Source: an uncultured Candidatus Rokubacteria bacterium (GTDB lineage Bacteria > Methylomirabilota > Methylomirabilia > Rokubacteriales > DASRDR01). From it: DNA of 64,000 bases. Position numbers and translations under genes: made by a program. The notes beneath the pieces are model-generated. The model ran no database searches. It was not told the DNA's origin and saw only the letters and a program-made list of their open reading frames with translations. Positions within the stretch are counted from its first letter, which is position 1; every line of letters starts with the position of its first letter. The stretch lies in NCBI GenBank assembly GCA_963826115.1, contig CAWGVS010000005.1, forward strand, positions 864,001 through 928,000, read 5' to 3'. This document shows positions 4,077 through 56,983 of the stretch, in pieces.

Positions 4077-4954
4077 TGCGAGGCGCGCGCCCGCCGCCGG
4101 AGCGACCGGAGGACCGCGAGGTTCCGGGCGTCCCCGTCGTCGCGCTTCGGGGTCTCCAGGATCATGGGCCGGGCGCCGAGGCGCGGGTGGTTCAGGAGGT
4201 ACCGGAACGCCGCGAGGCCGATCTGTCCCGCCCCGATGTTCTCGTGACGGTCGAGCCCCGATGCGAGCCCCGCCCGGCAGTCGTTCAGGTGGAACCCCAC
4301 GATCCGCTCGAGTCCCACCGAGCGATCGAGCTCGTCGAGCACGGCGCCGAAGCGTCGGGGCGTCCGGATGTCGTAGCCGGCCGCGAAGAGGTGGCATGTG
4401 TCGAGACACACCGCCAGACGCTCGGGTCGGCGGACTCGGCCCAGGATCTCGCCGAGTTCTTCCGCGCGGGCCCCCAGCGTGTGACCCGCCCCCGCGGTGT
4501 TCTCGATTGCCACGCGCACCGCCCAGCCGTCGGTGCGCCGGGCGATCTCGTCGAGCGCGCCGACGAGGCGCGCGACCCCCACGGCGGCGCCCGCCCCCCG
4601 GTGGGAGCCCGGATGGAGGACGACGAACGGGAGCCCGAGCCGTTCGGCGCGCTCGAGGTCGTCGAGGAGCCCCGCCACCGCGCGCGCTCGCTCATCCGGG
4701 CCCGGCGCCGCGAGGTTGATCAGGTAGTTCGCGTGCGCGCATGCGAAGCGGAGCCCGGACGCGGCGAATTCGCGCCGGAACTCGCGGACCTGGTCCTCCT
4801 CGAGCCGGGGGCCGGTCCACCGGAGCTGGTTCTTGACGAAGACCTGCACGACGCCGCAGCCGGCCGCCACGCCGCGCCGGACGGCGTTCGCGAGCCCGCC
4901 GGCCACCGACATGTGCGCGCCGAGGTTGTCGGGCGCGGCGCCGCCCGGCCTCAG
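4073..4954 (-). CDS. nfo: Endonuclease IV (AP endonuclease)
   Basis: LGAHMSVAGG, HANYLINLA, VLHPGS, ENTAG, CLDTCHLFAAGYD, HLND, DRHENIG, ILETP. Start uncertain (CTG 4954 overlapping the upstream stop). Confidence 0.93.
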   Translation of the reverse strand: MRPGGAAPDNLGAHMSVAGGLANAVRRGVAAGCGVVQVFVKNQLRWTGPRLEEDQVREFRREFAASGLRFACAHANYLINLAAPGPDERARAVAGLLDDLERAERLGLPFVVLHPGSHRGAGAAVGVARLVGALDEIARRTDGWAVRVAIENTAGAGHTLGARAEELGEILGRVRRPERLAVCLDTCHLFAAGYDIRTPRRFGAVLDELDRSVGLERIVGFHLNDCRAGLASGLDRHENIGAGQIGLAAFRYLLNHPRLGARPMILETPKRDDGDARNLAVLRSLRRRARASQ

Positions 4955-5412
4955 CCGAGCTGCTTCACCTCCGCGAGGATCTTGGCCGGGTCGGGCAGGA
5001 CCCCGCGAGCGTAGCGCTCCGCGAAGCGGATGACGCCCTGCCCGTCGATCACGAACGTCGCGCGGTAGCACGCGTTCAGCTCCGGCCAGTGGATCCCGTA
5101 GCGCTTGACCACGTCGCGCTGGATGTCGGCCAAGAGCGGGTACGAGATCCCGCCGAGCGACTTGGCCCACGCCTCGTGGCTGTACATGGAGTCACAGGAG
5201 ATGCCCACGACCTGGGCATTGGCGGCCTCGAAGTCCCGGATCCGGGCCTCGAAGGCCGGCATCTCCTTCGTTCAGCCCGGAGTCCAGTCAAGAACGTAGA
5301 AGAGCAGGACGACCGATTTCCCTCGCTGCTCGGCGAGGCTCCACTCCCTGCCCCCGATACCCTGGAGCCGGATGTCCGGCGCCATCTCGCCCACTTTCGG
5401 CATCTCCGACAT
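4951..5412 (-). CDS. Peroxiredoxin (AhpC/BCP-like), probable selenoprotein; in-frame TGA 5272-5274 = Sec47
   Basis: AAGGAGG RBS then ATG 5412. Reads MSEMPKVGEMAPDIRL...VVLLFYVLDWTPG-TGA-TKEMPAFE...GISCDS..YPLLAD..RATFVID; the TGA sits at the peroxidatic Cys of the TxxC motif. Confidence 0.88.
5242..5259 (-). promoter_or_regulatory. Candidate bacterial SECIS hairpin of the peroxiredoxin
   Basis: CCGGCCT-TCG-AGGCC(C)GG stem-loop starting 12 nt after the in-frame TGA. Confidence 0.5.
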
Positions 5413-5445
5413 GGCGTCCTCCTTCTCCTCGCGGCCCCGGCGGGC

Positions 5446-54452: not shown

Positions 54453-56303
54453 CTAGCCGAGCAGGGCGACGATGGCTTCCTCGTCGGCGGCCCCGAGGGC
54501 GGTCAGGCGGAGCCGCACGGCGCCGGGTCCGTCGGAGGCCATGACCTTCGCGTAGATGGCCTCCGATGTCCGGTCGAGCGGCGGGGGGTACCGGAGCTGC
54601 AGCTTGACGTTGGTCAGGGGGGCCAGCGGCTCCCCGAGGGTCGCCTCGACGTCCCGCCGGCCGAGCCGCACGACCCGTCCCGCGATCGGGTCCGGCCGCA
54701 CGACCTTGCCGTCGATGACCCAGCACACGAGCGGGAGCTCCACGGCCACGAGCCGGGCAGCCTCCTCCGGCTCGGTGGGCAGGTCGCGGGCGAACCGGCC
54801 GCCGAGACCGCGCAGCTCGTGTAGCACGAGGGGCTCGGAGAGTCCCTTGACCTCGACGGCCACCGGCGGGCCCACGCGCGCCAAATCGCCCAGCTCGGCC
54901 AGCGTCCGCGCGGTCAGCAGCACCTGGCCGCCCACGGTGGCGCTCTCGACGCGGCTCGCGATGTTGACGGCGCTGCCCACCACGGCGTACTTCGCCCGCT
55001 GCTCCGAGCCGATGTTCCCCACCACGGCCTCCCCCGTGTGAAGGCCGATGCCCATCTCGAACGCGGGCAGCCCTGCCCGGGCGTGCTCGGCGTTGACCTC
55101 GACCAGGGCGGCCTGCATCGCGAGCGCGGTGGCGGCCGCCCGCTCGGCGTGGTCCGGATGGGGTACCGGGGCCCCGTACACGGCGAAGATCGCGTCGCCG
55201 ATGAACTCGTTGATGGTGCCGCCGTGCGCGATGACGACCTCGGCCATGCGCGCCAGGTAGCCGTTCAGGATCTCCATCACTTGCTCGGGGTCGCCCTTCT
55301 CGGCGAAGCGCGTGTAGCCTCGGAGGTCGGACATCAGCACGGTGACGACCCGCTTCGTGCCACCGAAGCGGAGGCCTTCGGGCGACTCGAGGAGCGCCTG
55401 GGCAACCTCCGGCGAGACGTAGCGGCCGAACGCCGAGCGGATGAAGTCGCGCTGGCGGAGCCCGTCGAGCATGGAGTTGAAGGCTTGCATGAGGCGGCCC
55501 ATCTCGTCTCGCGACGTCACGACGAGGGGCTCGGAGAGGTCGCCGCCCGCGACGCGGGAGACTCCGCCCGTGAGGAGCGCGATGGGGCGCGTCAGCCGGC
55601 GCAGGACGAGCAAGCCGAGGACGAGCGTGGCCACGGCCCCCAAGCCGCTGGCGAACAGGAGGCTGTTCCGGAGCTCGTGCAGGCGGTCCAGGTAGATCTC
55701 GACCGGGTAGGTGACGTGGAGAAGGGCGCCGGGCCGCCCCTGGGGGTCGAGGACGGGCGCGAAGGCCGAGATCCAGAGCCGGCCCTGGTCGCGATAGACG
55801 CGCGTGTAGCGCGCCACACCGTCGCCGAGCGTCCAGCCCATCGGCTCGACCAGCTCCGGCGGGAGCGGATAGGGGTCGCCCGGCCGCCCGGAACCGCTGC
55901 TGGCGAGCACCAGGCGTGCCATCCGTGTCGCGGGCTGGAGGTCCACCAGCGTGGTGATCGGGCTCGTCAGGAGGGTCTCATCCTGGATGGCTCCGAGCGT
56001 CTGGCGGAGGCGCAGGTAGGCCGGCGAGTCGGTCGAGCGGGACGCGTCGACCTCCGCGTGGAGCCGGGGGTCGAGCTGGAGGGCCGCGACGCGCGCGATG
56101 TTGAGGAGCTGCGTCCCGACCGAGTCCTCGACCTCGCGCTGCTGACGCGTGTAGGTCAGGACGCCGACCGCCCCGACCGCCAGGAACGTGACCGCGGCGA
56201 AGAACGCGGCGAGACGGACGCTCAGCCGCTGCCACGGCCGGAGAGGGGGCGGCGCGCTAACCGGCGGTCCCGGCGTGGCCGGGCTCACCTCTGGGCTCGT
56301 CAT
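54453..56303 (-). CDS. Membrane class III adenylate/guanylate cyclase with HAMP domain
   Basis: TM-periplasmic-[42 protein letters not shown]. Confidence 0.93.
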
Positions 56304-56482
56304 CGCGCCCTAGGATGCGCCGCGGCCGGCTTACGGTCCACTGCCGGGCGGGAGGCGGGCCCGGGGCCTCGAGACCGGGCCGGCCCGGGAGTTCGGACCC
56401 CGCTCCCGCGATGCGGTATCCTTGGCCCTGTGGGCCTTCGAGGCCCGGACGTAGGAGCAATCGTCACCGCGGGAGGACATGC

Positions 56483-56983
56483 ATGAGGGTCACGCTCCGA
56501 TGTGGGCCGGCGCTCCTGGCGCTGCTGGCGGCCGTCGCGCTGCCGGCCGCCTCGCGCGTGGGCCACGCCCAGTCGCAGCCGCCGATCGAGCTGATCAAGG
56601 TGGATCAGCTGAACGCCATGCTGAAGAAGGGCACGCCGGCCCAGATCATCGACGTCCGGAGCCGGCAGGAGTTCCTGACGCGGCACATCAAGGGGGCCGT
56701 CTCGATCCCGCTCGACACCATCGAGCTCCGGGTCGGCGAGGTCTCCCGCCAGGGCCTGGTCGTCCTCTACTGAGCGTGCCCACACCACCTGGCCAGTTTG
56801 GCCTACGGCAAGCTCCATCAGATGGGATACCGGAACCTGAAGGTCCTGGACGAGGGCATCCCCGGCTGGGTGCAGCAAGGGCTGCCGACCGAGGGCTGGC
56901 AGTCCCGCGGCCCGTTCGTCCCGCACGGGGACGAGACCTATCGCGCCGTGGGAGTGGAGCCCCCCCCGCGGACGACCCAATGA
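56483..56983 (+). CDS. Exported rhodanese-domain protein, probable selenoprotein (Y-U-A-C-P); in-frame TGA 56771-56773 = Sec97
   Basis: GGAGG RBS and signal peptide. Reads IIDVRS..HIKGAVSIP..VVLY-TGA-ACPHHLAS..GYRNLKVLDEGIPGW; final stop overlaps the Fur-family ATG. Confidence 0.88.
56777..56810 (+). promoter_or_regulatory. Candidate SECIS hairpin of the rhodanese
   Basis: Upper stem GGCCA-GTT-TGGCC (56791-56803), lower stem TGCC/GGCA. Confidence 0.5.

Follow-up and report, generated by a model that had tools for sequence, protein, structure and literature searches.

Three in-frame TGA codons within a 64,000 nt stretch of a Candidatus Rokubacteria genome (hereafter the window) are very probably selenocysteine (Sec) codons, decoded through the usual Sec pathway of bacteria. 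They lie in genes for a peroxiredoxin (Prx), a TlpA/ResA-like thiol:disulfide oxidoreductase and a rhodanese-domain protein. What the sequences show is the codons themselves, their conservation, the downstream hairpins with their dependence on TGA, and the presence of the machinery genes. An initial annotation, made from the raw sequence, had placed TGA at the active-site Cys in three different folds, and this was borne out: Pfam models span each of the codons, and Cys is found at the UGA position in homologs, namely in TGC orthologs of the rhodanese and TlpA-like genes and in a distant TGC homolog of Prx. Sec codons can thus be recognised by a reader of raw sequence alone, and no new decoding mechanism is revealed by the finding.

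The host is a Candidatus Rokubacteria/Methylomirabilota MAG of 72% G+C, with an estimated contamination of 5.3%. It encodes selA, selB, selD and tRNA-Sec (selC), all of which score above curated cut-offs. SelB (347.8 bits, cut-off 242) covers positions 2–581 of the 581 positions of TIGR00475 and has the standard set of domains, including the winged-helix domains SelB-wing_2 and wing_3. The profile score of selA is 576.5 bits and that of selD is 393.2 bits, with one TGA lying inside selD. The gene for tRNA-Sec(UCA) adjoins selA and scores 76.9 bits against Rfam RF01852 (threshold 47). With this gene set, SelD would provide selenophosphate, SelA would convert Ser-tRNA-Sec to Sec-tRNA-Sec, and SelB-GTP would deliver the latter to the ribosome, its C-terminal winged-helix domain being tethered to a SECIS hairpin in the coding sequence just past the UGA. 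Insertion of selenium at the three sites is predicted on this basis.

Reading the whole window with TGA as Sec is uninformative, as every frame stays open for kilobases at 72% G+C. A scan of GC content by codon position detected seven in-frame TGAs in the window with coding signal on both sides, three of which each fall inside one domain. The remaining four were dismissed as Sec codons, being gene junctions or lying in antisense frames.

The Prx (AhpC/TSA) gene (4951..5412, minus strand) specifies a protein of 153 aa with a T-P-G-U motif, and its ATG at 5412 is preceded by ggagaaggagga. The UGA (5272..5274, minus strand) corresponds to residue U47, the position of the peroxidatic Cys, in the context LLFYVLDWTPG-U-TKEMPAF. 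PF00578 (AhpC-TSA) matches residues 7–130, across U47, with 132.6 bits (gathering threshold 26), and the WTPGU motif is present. An N-terminal leader is absent, and the peroxiredoxin is predicted to act in the cytoplasm, using Sec as its peroxidatic residue. TGA occupies the site in 14/14 loci of one genome search and in 21/21 Rokubacteria/Methylomirabilota loci taken from genome contigs; among published relatives only, 32 of the 33 best matches covering the site carry one TGA. A homolog from Verrucomicrobia, 31% identical, has TGC there.

The candidate SECIS of Prx (5222..5260, minus strand) starts 11 nt 3' of the UGA and consists of an interrupted 11-bp lower helix around a variable 15-nt apex (MFE fold; RNAalifold), which here forms a 4-bp stem with a 4-nt loop, cccg-GAUC-cggg, the loop starting at offset 32 from the U of UGA. 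RNAalifold analysis of 22 sequences supports the helix because of one compensatory base pair, 18-51 (GC in 13, CG in 8, broken in 1), which reflects paired synonymous changes and is the sole such pair found. The apical loop varies among orthologs, and several have no G in the first two loop positions unless one pair is opened. Table 1 of PMC13188914 lists Prx selenoproteins with a TxxU motif (PF00578; NCBIfam PrxU, NF040737) among the experimentally verified ones. The window protein shares with them the AhpC/TSA fold, Sec at the peroxidatic position and a downstream in-ORF SECIS, but it scores 62.5 bits against NF040737 (cut-off 270) and so falls outside the PrxU ortholog group, and in place of a short triloop hairpin it has a long SECIS helix whose apex varies.

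The TlpA/ResA-like gene (53307..53858, minus strand) codes for 183 aa with the motif W-x-x-x-U-I-N-C (WTYGUINC). Its UGA (53634..53636, minus strand) specifies U75, the first Cys position of the CxxC pair, within VEFWTYG-U-INCKNVIPQL. Three Pfam models, AhpC-TSA (PF00578), Redoxin (PF08534) and Thioredoxin_8 (PF13905), exceed their cut-offs over residues 38–167, across U75. The NCBIfam equivalogs ResA, TlpA and DsbE all score under cut-off (ResA is the top match, with 58.5 bits), and no orthology is claimed. A hydrophobic leader is read at the N-terminus, and the product would be an exported redoxin with a U-x-x-C pair. For published relatives, the best match contains one TGA in 26 cases and no TGA in 5. 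The hairpin ucccgc-AGUU-gcgggg (53599..53614, minus strand; 6-bp stem, 4-nt loop) begins 19 nt past the UGA, with the loop starting at offset 28 from the U. All ten TGA orthologs retain CAG-TTG-CGG, and all four TGC orthologs have CTG. Prx-like/TlpA-like selenoproteins with a UxxC or UGC motif appear in Table 1 of PMC13188914; the window protein has in common with this type (PF00578/cd02966; NCBIfam WAxxUGC_long, NF041054) the thioredoxin fold, Sec in place of the first Cys of CxxC and an N-terminal export or anchor segment. Its motif differs (W-T-Y-G-U-I-N-C as against WAxxUGC), and it reaches 27.2 bits with NF041054, where the cut-off is 300. The gene is flanked by a two-component system on one side and a gene for a DUF2282 (bufferin-type) precursor on the other.

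The rhodanese gene (56483..56983, plus strand) encodes 166 aa with the motif L-Y-U-A-C-P-H-H. PF00581 matches residues 40–131 with 62.7 bits (gathering threshold 22.2), across the UGA at 56771..56773 (plus strand). This codon specifies U97 at the position of the catalytic Cys (GLVVLY-U-ACPHHLASLAY), and in an alignment with PDB 6mxv the Cys of the YCGxGxRS loops (YCGGGFRS, YCGSGFRS) falls opposite U97. The product is predicted to be exported and to have Sec as its catalytic residue, followed by Cys at the second position after it. Both it and the TlpA-like protein have hydrophobic leaders of export type as judged from their sequences, in line with the initial annotation, which had proposed that two of the three proteins are exported. 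Twelve sequences of the genus, including the present genome, have 10 TGA and 2 TGC at the site, and the U97 column of full-length database homologs contains C in 9 and W in 2. The hairpin ggcca-GUU-uggcc (56791..56803, plus strand; 5-bp stem, 3-nt loop), alternatively drawn as ggcc-AGUUU-ggcc, begins 17 nt past the UGA and has its loop start at offset 25 from the U. Nine of the ten TGA orthologs retain AGT-TTG at this point and the tenth has AGT-CTG, whereas the two TGC orthologs carry AGC-CTG or AGC-CTC. Both AGT (1.6% of Ser codons) and TTG (1.6% of Leu codons) are rare.

Relatives of the TlpA-like and rhodanese genes therefore provide a within-genus natural experiment, in which the hairpin codons stay with TGA and vanish with TGC: the rare codons that place G-U in the loop are kept alongside TGA, and common codons replace them alongside TGC. 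Through this linkage to TGA, SECIS constraints are seen to shape the synonymous positions of a 72% G+C genome. The two hairpins are near-invariant among TGA orthologs, and thus no covariation is available from them.

Across the genome, 32 Sec-TGAs that had been picked by protein motif and Pfam match, before any inspection for hairpins, were examined for a positioned hairpin (stem of at least 5 bp, loop of 3–6 nt, G in the first two loop bases, loop start 16–37 nt from the U). Such a hairpin follows 30 of the 32, compared to 37% of 3000 Cys codons and 40% of 1500 true TGA stops. With a stem of at least 6 bp, the values are 27/32 for Sec-TGAs and 19% for both Cys codons and true stops (Fisher p about 1e-10 to 1e-15). 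The enrichment over true stops for which the initial annotation had proposed to look is therefore present, as are the hairpins it described past each of the three TGAs. The two genes that fail this contiguous-stem rule are the window Prx and a GATase. The folding energy of the 50 nt 3' of the UGA gives no separation (means of -19.6 kcal/mol for Sec and -20.1 kcal/mol for true stops), so that Sec codons are separated from true stops by the positioned-hairpin test only, and not by overall folding energy.

The initial annotation had also envisaged a lineage-specific SECIS, and one unlike the general bacterial element, with for example a short G+C stem, a C-AGUU apex and a diverged SelB, would be an alternative to the standard pathway. 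We consider it unlikely. The loops are indeed small, the TlpA-like and rhodanese genes do have C-AGTT in common, 5 of the 30 hairpins carry AGUU-type loops, two of the 32 genes do not conform to the contiguous-stem rule, and, according to PMC13188914, a subset of bacterial SECIS candidates falls outside the consensus model. However, most of the 30 hairpins place the loop G at offset 20–25 from the U, which matches the G23/U24 geometry of Escherichia coli fdhF. Other genes use GUG or GUC and not AGUU (GUG, GUC or GGUC occur in 14 of the 30), and AGUU seems to arise because Gln-Leu or Ser-Leu is encoded there at a GC3 above 90%, not because of a shared motif. The domain set of SelB is standard, with TIGR00475 matched over almost its whole length, and tRNA-Sec is canonical. 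The general bacterial SECIS, as given in the legend to Fig. 2 of PMC13188914, has a loop of 3–9 nt, a stem of 4–16 bp, G in the first two loop bases and a distance of 16–37 nt from the UGA; all three window hairpins lie within these limits for loop size, stem size and distance, and in the MAG all three genes have G in the first two loop bases (AGUU, GUU and GAUC). The proposal of a lineage-specific element is not supported by these data. In common with the E. coli fdhF/fdnG elements, described in PMC13188914 as the best characterised bacterial SECIS, there is an in-ORF hairpin after the UGA, a small apical loop with a G (usually G-U) about 20–25 nt away, and a SelB with C-terminal winged helices. 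Unlike in fdhF/fdnG, the stems of the window and the MAG are G+C-rich and mostly uninterrupted, and the loops are often of 3 nt.

That the TGAs are instead true stops or nonsense codons (in pseudogenes or split genes), or that an alternative code or a suppressor tRNA decodes them as Cys or Trp, has a negligible probability: public gene calls of the rhodanese do stop at its TGA, and W at the site in two rhodanese homologs is what a TGA=Trp code would give, but the TGAs are conserved across genera with coding constraint on both flanks, single domains span each of them, the Sec machinery is complete, TGA terminates 1545 (68%) of 2275 long, confidently coding ORFs (TAG 666, TAA 64), and an ARAGORN search of the genome found no UCA-anticodon tRNA other than tRNA-Sec, the Cys and Trp tRNAs having GCA and CCA anticodons. 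The genome is thus not globally recoded, as the initial annotation had stated.

The selenoproteome of the MAG is large, comprising dozens of genes, mostly with thiol-oxidoreductase folds. In a partial genome scan, 37 of the 43 TGAs examined have a family model that spans them; five of the 37 are on contig C11, which resembles a second, related genome and was probably co-binned with the MAG, so the count is at least 37, or at least 32 if C11 is foreign. The scan covered TGAs with at least 10 codons after them; any Sec near a C-terminus would be additional to this count. Candidates L052 (asparaginase) and L057 (isochorismatase/deformylase) were dropped as gene junctions, L053, L054 and L056 matched no family, and in L039 a SelL-related redox model covers only 47 residues around the TGA before the frame is lost. 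When 1849 loosely filtered candidates were compared by BLAST with ORFs of the genome itself, the result was discarded as too noisy, since antisense and off-frame ORFs aligned mutually, and the 'C' matches were inflated because C had been placed at every candidate site. A large selenoproteome had been anticipated in the initial annotation on the assumption that the density of the window held genome-wide; the size was confirmed but the extrapolation was not, the window having one selenoprotein gene per 21 kb and the genome about one per 170 kb, a difference of about 8x. This lineage, known from soil and groundwater, has previously been reported to be unusually selenoprotein-rich, and PMC13188914, a 2026 review, cites work (Deng et al. 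2026, Cell Rep) in which 63 selenoprotein genes were predicted for one Methylomirabilota MAG. The present count (at least 32–37 genes) is a second, independent one at genome level.

The rhodanese differs from the NCBIfam family NF041203 ('rhodanese_LYCAU'), which corresponds to form 3 (CxU) in PMC13188914. Both have a single rhodanese domain and a Sec/Cys pair at i and i+2 in the active-site loop after L-Y, but the order L-Y-U-A-C is the reverse of LYCAU (C-x-U) and places Sec at the canonical catalytic position. The window protein scores 51.6 bits with NF041203 (cut-off 115) and is set apart by its signal-peptide-like N-terminus and by a C-terminal tail of 35 residues conserved across the genus. 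The MAG also contains two genuine LYC(A/S)U genes, L033 and L048. A U-x-C motif is absent from the five rhodanese forms listed in PMC13188914. Standard gene calling truncates these proteins, and here 103 of the best 120 database relatives are 94–99 aa long, having been ended at the UGA by public gene callers. We tentatively raise the joint proposal, itself rather doubtful, that the exported L-Y-U-A-C rhodanese represents an undescribed selenoprotein subfamily, which the truncated gene calls would keep largely hidden in databases, and that Rokubacteria have a selenium-based relay for thiols and persulfides in the periplasm, linked to stress from copper or other metals.

Immediately downstream is a gene for a Fur-family regulator (56980..57456, plus strand; PF01475, 75.7 bits), the ATG of which overlaps the rhodanese stop codon (ATGA). 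It is noted for context and lies outside Sec decoding. In the proposal just given, the rhodanese gene is taken to be translationally coupled to that of the regulator and to lie in a conserved metal-homeostasis island that includes CopD/cytochrome c, CusF, NicO/DUF1007, the Sec-containing TlpA-like redoxin, and two bufferin-type DUF2282 precursors together with their MbnB-like enzyme.

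The window has a G+C content of 70–75% and all frames are open over long stretches, so plain ORF lists were uninformative and were set aside. Candidate TGA codons were those whose two flanks both show the G+C pattern by codon position that is typical of real genes. Seven were found, four of which were rejected as selenocysteine (Sec, U) codons, being gene junctions or antisense frames, and the remaining three interrupt single domains. They lie in the genes for a peroxiredoxin (4951–5412, minus strand; TGA at 5274–5272, residue 47, motif DWTPG-U-TKE), a TlpA/ResA-like redoxin (53307–53858, minus strand; TGA at 53636–53634, residue 75, motif FWTYG-U-INC) and a rhodanese (56483–56983, plus strand; TGA at 56771–56773, residue 97, motif VVLY-U-ACPHH). 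With U read through, the TGA is spanned by Pfam AhpC-TSA in the peroxiredoxin (132.6 bits), by AhpC-TSA, Redoxin and Thioredoxin_8 in the TlpA-like protein, and by Rhodanese (62.7 bits) in the third. U97 of the rhodanese aligns with the cysteine in the active-site loop, YCGxGxRS, of solved rhodaneses. By their motifs, the U of T-x-x-U (peroxiredoxin) is at the peroxidatic position and that of U-x-x-C (TlpA-like) at the attacking position, as is well established for these two families. The placement of all three TGAs at active-site cysteines in the initial annotation is thereby borne out. Directly 3' of the peroxiredoxin UGA is an in-frame AAGGAG-AUG (5263–5271, minus strand) that resembles a ribosome-binding site and start codon without a spacer; it encodes K-E-M and is kept in most orthologs, and no sign of its use as a start was seen.

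The closest public contigs are titled Candidatus Rokubacteria, Rokuibacteriota or Methylomirabilota. Forty relatives of the same order were searched, with counts that exclude one unpublished genome (G038). The best match to the peroxiredoxin has a single in-frame TGA in 32 out of 33 relatives with coverage of the site, the TlpA-like gene has the TGA in 26 relatives and none in 5, and the 12 rhodanese sequences of the genus, including this genome, comprise 10 with TGA and 2 with TGC. A scan of genome contigs gave TGA in 21/21 Rokubacteria/Methylomirabilota peroxiredoxin loci, and TGC at the Sec site of a Verrucomicrobia homolog (31% identical). Because the TGA pattern is conserved across relatives, nonsense mutation or sequencing error cannot account for it, and chance nonsense changes at all three sites, already considered improbable, can be set aside.

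The reported hairpin after each TGA was also found. The TlpA-like element is ucccgc-AGUU-gcgggg, that of the rhodanese is ggcca-GUU-uggcc, and the peroxiredoxin has a longer helix in which GCCGGCCUUCGAG pairs with a ACUUCGAGGCCGC repeat, enclosing 15 variable bases. The C-AGTT noted as common to two of them is real, and its origin can be read from the orthologs. Rhodanese genes with TGA have Ser-AGT Leu-TTG in 9/10 cases (AGT-CTG in the other), and the two with TGC have AGC-CTG and AGC-CTC. Similarly, CAG-TTG-CGG occurs in 10/10 TlpA-like sequences with TGA and CTG in 4/4 with TGC, one of which otherwise retains the stem. As AGT and TTG are rare in this genome (1.6% of Ser and 1.6% of Leu codons, respectively) and are replaced in the TGC orthologs, selection retains the codons that give the loop G-U only when there is an upstream TGA. 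The peroxiredoxin helix has 11 pairs (RNAalifold, 22 sequences), one of which flips from G-C to C-G via two synonymous changes (13 GC, 8 CG, 1 broken); being a single compensatory pair, it lends modest covariation support. No conservation is seen at the apex of this element.

Hairpin frequency was compared using 32 Sec codons assembled blind to RNA structure, and a rule specifying a stem of at least 5 bp, a loop of 3–6 nt with G in its first two bases, and a loop start 16–37 nt from U. Such hairpins follow 30/32 Sec codons, 37.2% of Cys codons inside genes (n = 3000) and 39.9% of true TGA stops (n = 1500). For stems of at least 6 bp the values are 27/32, 19.0% and 19.0%, and for at least 7 bp 18/32, 8.2% and 9.4%, so that hairpins are enriched at Sec codons over ordinary TGA stops (Fisher p 3e-10 to 6e-15). 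The two exceptions at 5 bp are the peroxiredoxin of the window, which has an interrupted stem, and a GATase. Plain folding energy separates nothing (−19.6, −18.0 and −20.1 kcal/mol for Sec codons, Cys codons and stops).

UGA is not recoded across the genome, as the initial annotation had stated: TGA is the stop codon of 1545 of the 2275 long ORFs that show a strong coding signature, against 666 for TAG and 64 for TAA. The single UCA-anticodon tRNA detected by ARAGORN in the genome is tRNA-Sec, alongside tRNA-Cys(GCA) and tRNA-Trp(CCA), and a tRNA-Cys(UCA), proposed as something to look for, was not detected by this program. Genes for SelB (347.8 bits, cut-off 242; positions 2–581 of the 581-position model), SelA (576.5 bits) and tRNA-Sec (Rfam RF01852, 76.9 bits, threshold 47) are clustered on contig C8, and selD (393.2 bits), which itself contains one TGA, is on the same contig as the window. 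The SelB ORF comprises the GTPase, domain 2, SelB beta-barrel, SelB-wing_2 and SelB-wing_3, and the Sec machinery is of ordinary bacterial architecture. In the phylum, selB scores over the cut-off in 136/151 sampled genomes (132/147 without four unpublished genomes).

In most of the 30 hairpins the loop G is at offset 20–25 from U, which is also the geometry of the E. coli fdhF element. A 2026 review (PMC13188914) gives a general bacterial SECIS as a loop of 3–9 nt, an upper stem of 4–16 bp, a G within the first two loop positions, a distance of 16–37 nt from UGA and a folding energy no higher than −7.5 kcal/mol, and all three window elements, as found in this genome, conform to the model as given there. 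The suggestion of a lineage-specific SECIS is not supported, as the SelB and tRNA-Sec are canonical, and no sign of one was seen in the three elements, the geometry of the 30 hairpins, SelB or tRNA-Sec. The small triloop hairpins, rich in G+C, are a matter of style in a high-G+C genome, and the Sec system is of the ordinary type, belonging to a lineage whose richness in selenoproteins was recognised recently.

Three filters applied to genome TGAs gave 304, 351 and 1849 candidates, from which 40 were chosen by eye from flanking sequence and 3 more were taken out of 122 passing a hairpin filter; the scan was partial and its counts are lower bounds. A Pfam or NCBIfam model spans the TGA in 37 of these 43. 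They include twelve AhpC-TSA/Redoxin proteins (one scoring over the curated WAxxUGC cut-off), five CMD/AhpD-type proteins (four of them hits to the 'YciW-related (seleno)protein' model, including one above the threshold of that model), four rhodaneses, three UGSC proteins (with one possible fragment) and two MerB-like lyases. The others, one each, are DsbA, DsrE, PDO/thioredoxin_3, glutaredoxin, OsmC, MoeB, a CTP-synthase-C-terminal-related GATase, a PrdB/GrdB-like protein, a CUAEP-tail radical SAM protein, FdhA, formylmethanofuran dehydrogenase B and SelD. Contig C11 (239 kb) aligns collinearly, though inverted, to the end of C5 (C5:1915000-2125000), at 83.5% nucleotide identity over 160 kb (67% of C11), and holds 5/37 of the genes, three being near-copies of C5 genes. 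Given the MAG contamination estimate of 5.3%, C11 is probably a second, congeneric genome co-binned into the MAG, which puts the count at a minimum of 32 to 37, roughly one gene per 170–195 kb. The organism is thus selenoprotein-rich, as anticipated, but the density of the window does not extend genome-wide, and its three genes in 64 kb are a local excess. A Methylomirabilota MAG with 63 predicted selenoprotein genes is cited as a new upper bound, with a caveat of co-assembled strains (PMC13188914, citing Deng et al. 2026). Our literature search for selenoproteins of Rokubacteria/Methylomirabilota found no paper treating the present genes.

Several other loci of the scan deserve mention. Two MerB (alkylmercury lyase) homologs, L050 (G000:C5:2103120-2104052, G000 being this MAG) and L051 (G000:C11:36629-37561), have the TGA in GFL-U-TRLNFF, about 63 residues downstream of a CCAIDALG motif and presumably at the second catalytic Cys of MerB. 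This arrangement differs from the 'CU' form of SaoL listed in PMC13188914. The bacterial formylmethanofuran dehydrogenase subunit B (L034, G000:C10:440229-441788) has the TGA in SL-U-HGPT, spanned by a TIGR03129 match (443 bits, cut-off 328), and the same review lists this selenoprotein family in both bacteria and archaea. A SelL-related redox gene (L039, G000:C5:406788-408221; HYG-U-VFC) matches its family over only 47 residues around the TGA, followed by a nonsense frame, and represents a frameshift, pseudogene or assembly error. The TGA at G000:C10:136413 (plus strand) immediately precedes the Cys in a lipobox-like LLA-U-CDQG, and the column is Gly in one paralog (E 2e-20 in a noisy self-BLAST). 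This TGA appears to be a point mutation or a sequencing error rather than a Sec codon.

Table 1 of PMC13188914 gives TxxU for peroxiredoxins, UxxC and UGC for peroxiredoxin-like/TlpA-like proteins, and five rhodanese forms (UxxS, UxxG, CxU, UxxG and UxxxxU). The U-x-C of the window rhodanese is absent from these five, but may be present in BSepDB or in published supplements, and it is possibly an undescribed motif variant within a known type of selenoprotein. At 51.6 bits against a cut-off of 115, the protein falls outside the curated LYCAU family (NF041203). Among its best 120 database relatives, 103 are only 94–99 residues long and so end at the UGA in public gene calls, and the full-length ones have C (9) or W (2) at the Sec column. 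The two W-bearing calls (P0014 and P0116) appear as if a TGA=Trp code had been used. Two membrane proteins with a DedA/VTT domain, L033 (G000:C10:571198-572163) and L048 (G000:C6:1155496-1156425), share the LYC(A/S)U (C-x-U) rhodanese motif, in contrast to the U-x-C of the window, so both types are present in this genome.

The peroxiredoxin lacks an N-terminal leader and presumably acts as a peroxidase in the cytoplasm, and the TlpA-like protein and rhodanese have N-terminal hydrophobic leaders, read from sequence (MQRGAALSWAIGLVALVAAITAGAL... and MRVTLRCGPALLALLAAVALPAASRVGHA-QS). The latter two genes lie within a block at about 45–59 kb that includes a 679 aa CopD-cytochrome c-AhpC/TSA three-part fusion and, downstream, CusF and a Cys-type rhodanese, 33% identical to the Sec rhodanese; together these genes occupy 45185–47639 and 47249–48049 on the plus strand. 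On the minus strand, a Cys-rich, bufferin-type DUF2282 precursor (50587–50847, 81.3 bits) is followed by a MbnB/TglH/ChrH-type enzyme (49695–50552) and DUF2063 (48896–49708), and these three genes (48896–50847) make up a RiPP operon of the type that yields copper-binding bufferins. A second such precursor (54061–54321, minus strand, 84.2 bits) adjoins the Sec TlpA-like gene and is an orphan. The block also contains a two-component system, adenylate cyclase, NicO, DUF1007 and a Fur-family regulator, the start of which overlaps the stop of the Sec rhodanese. Periplasmic thiol or persulfide chemistry tied to metal stress is a plausible role. The spacing between the TlpA-like and rhodanese genes is kept in two relatives, at 2.5–2.6 kb (G002 and G008).
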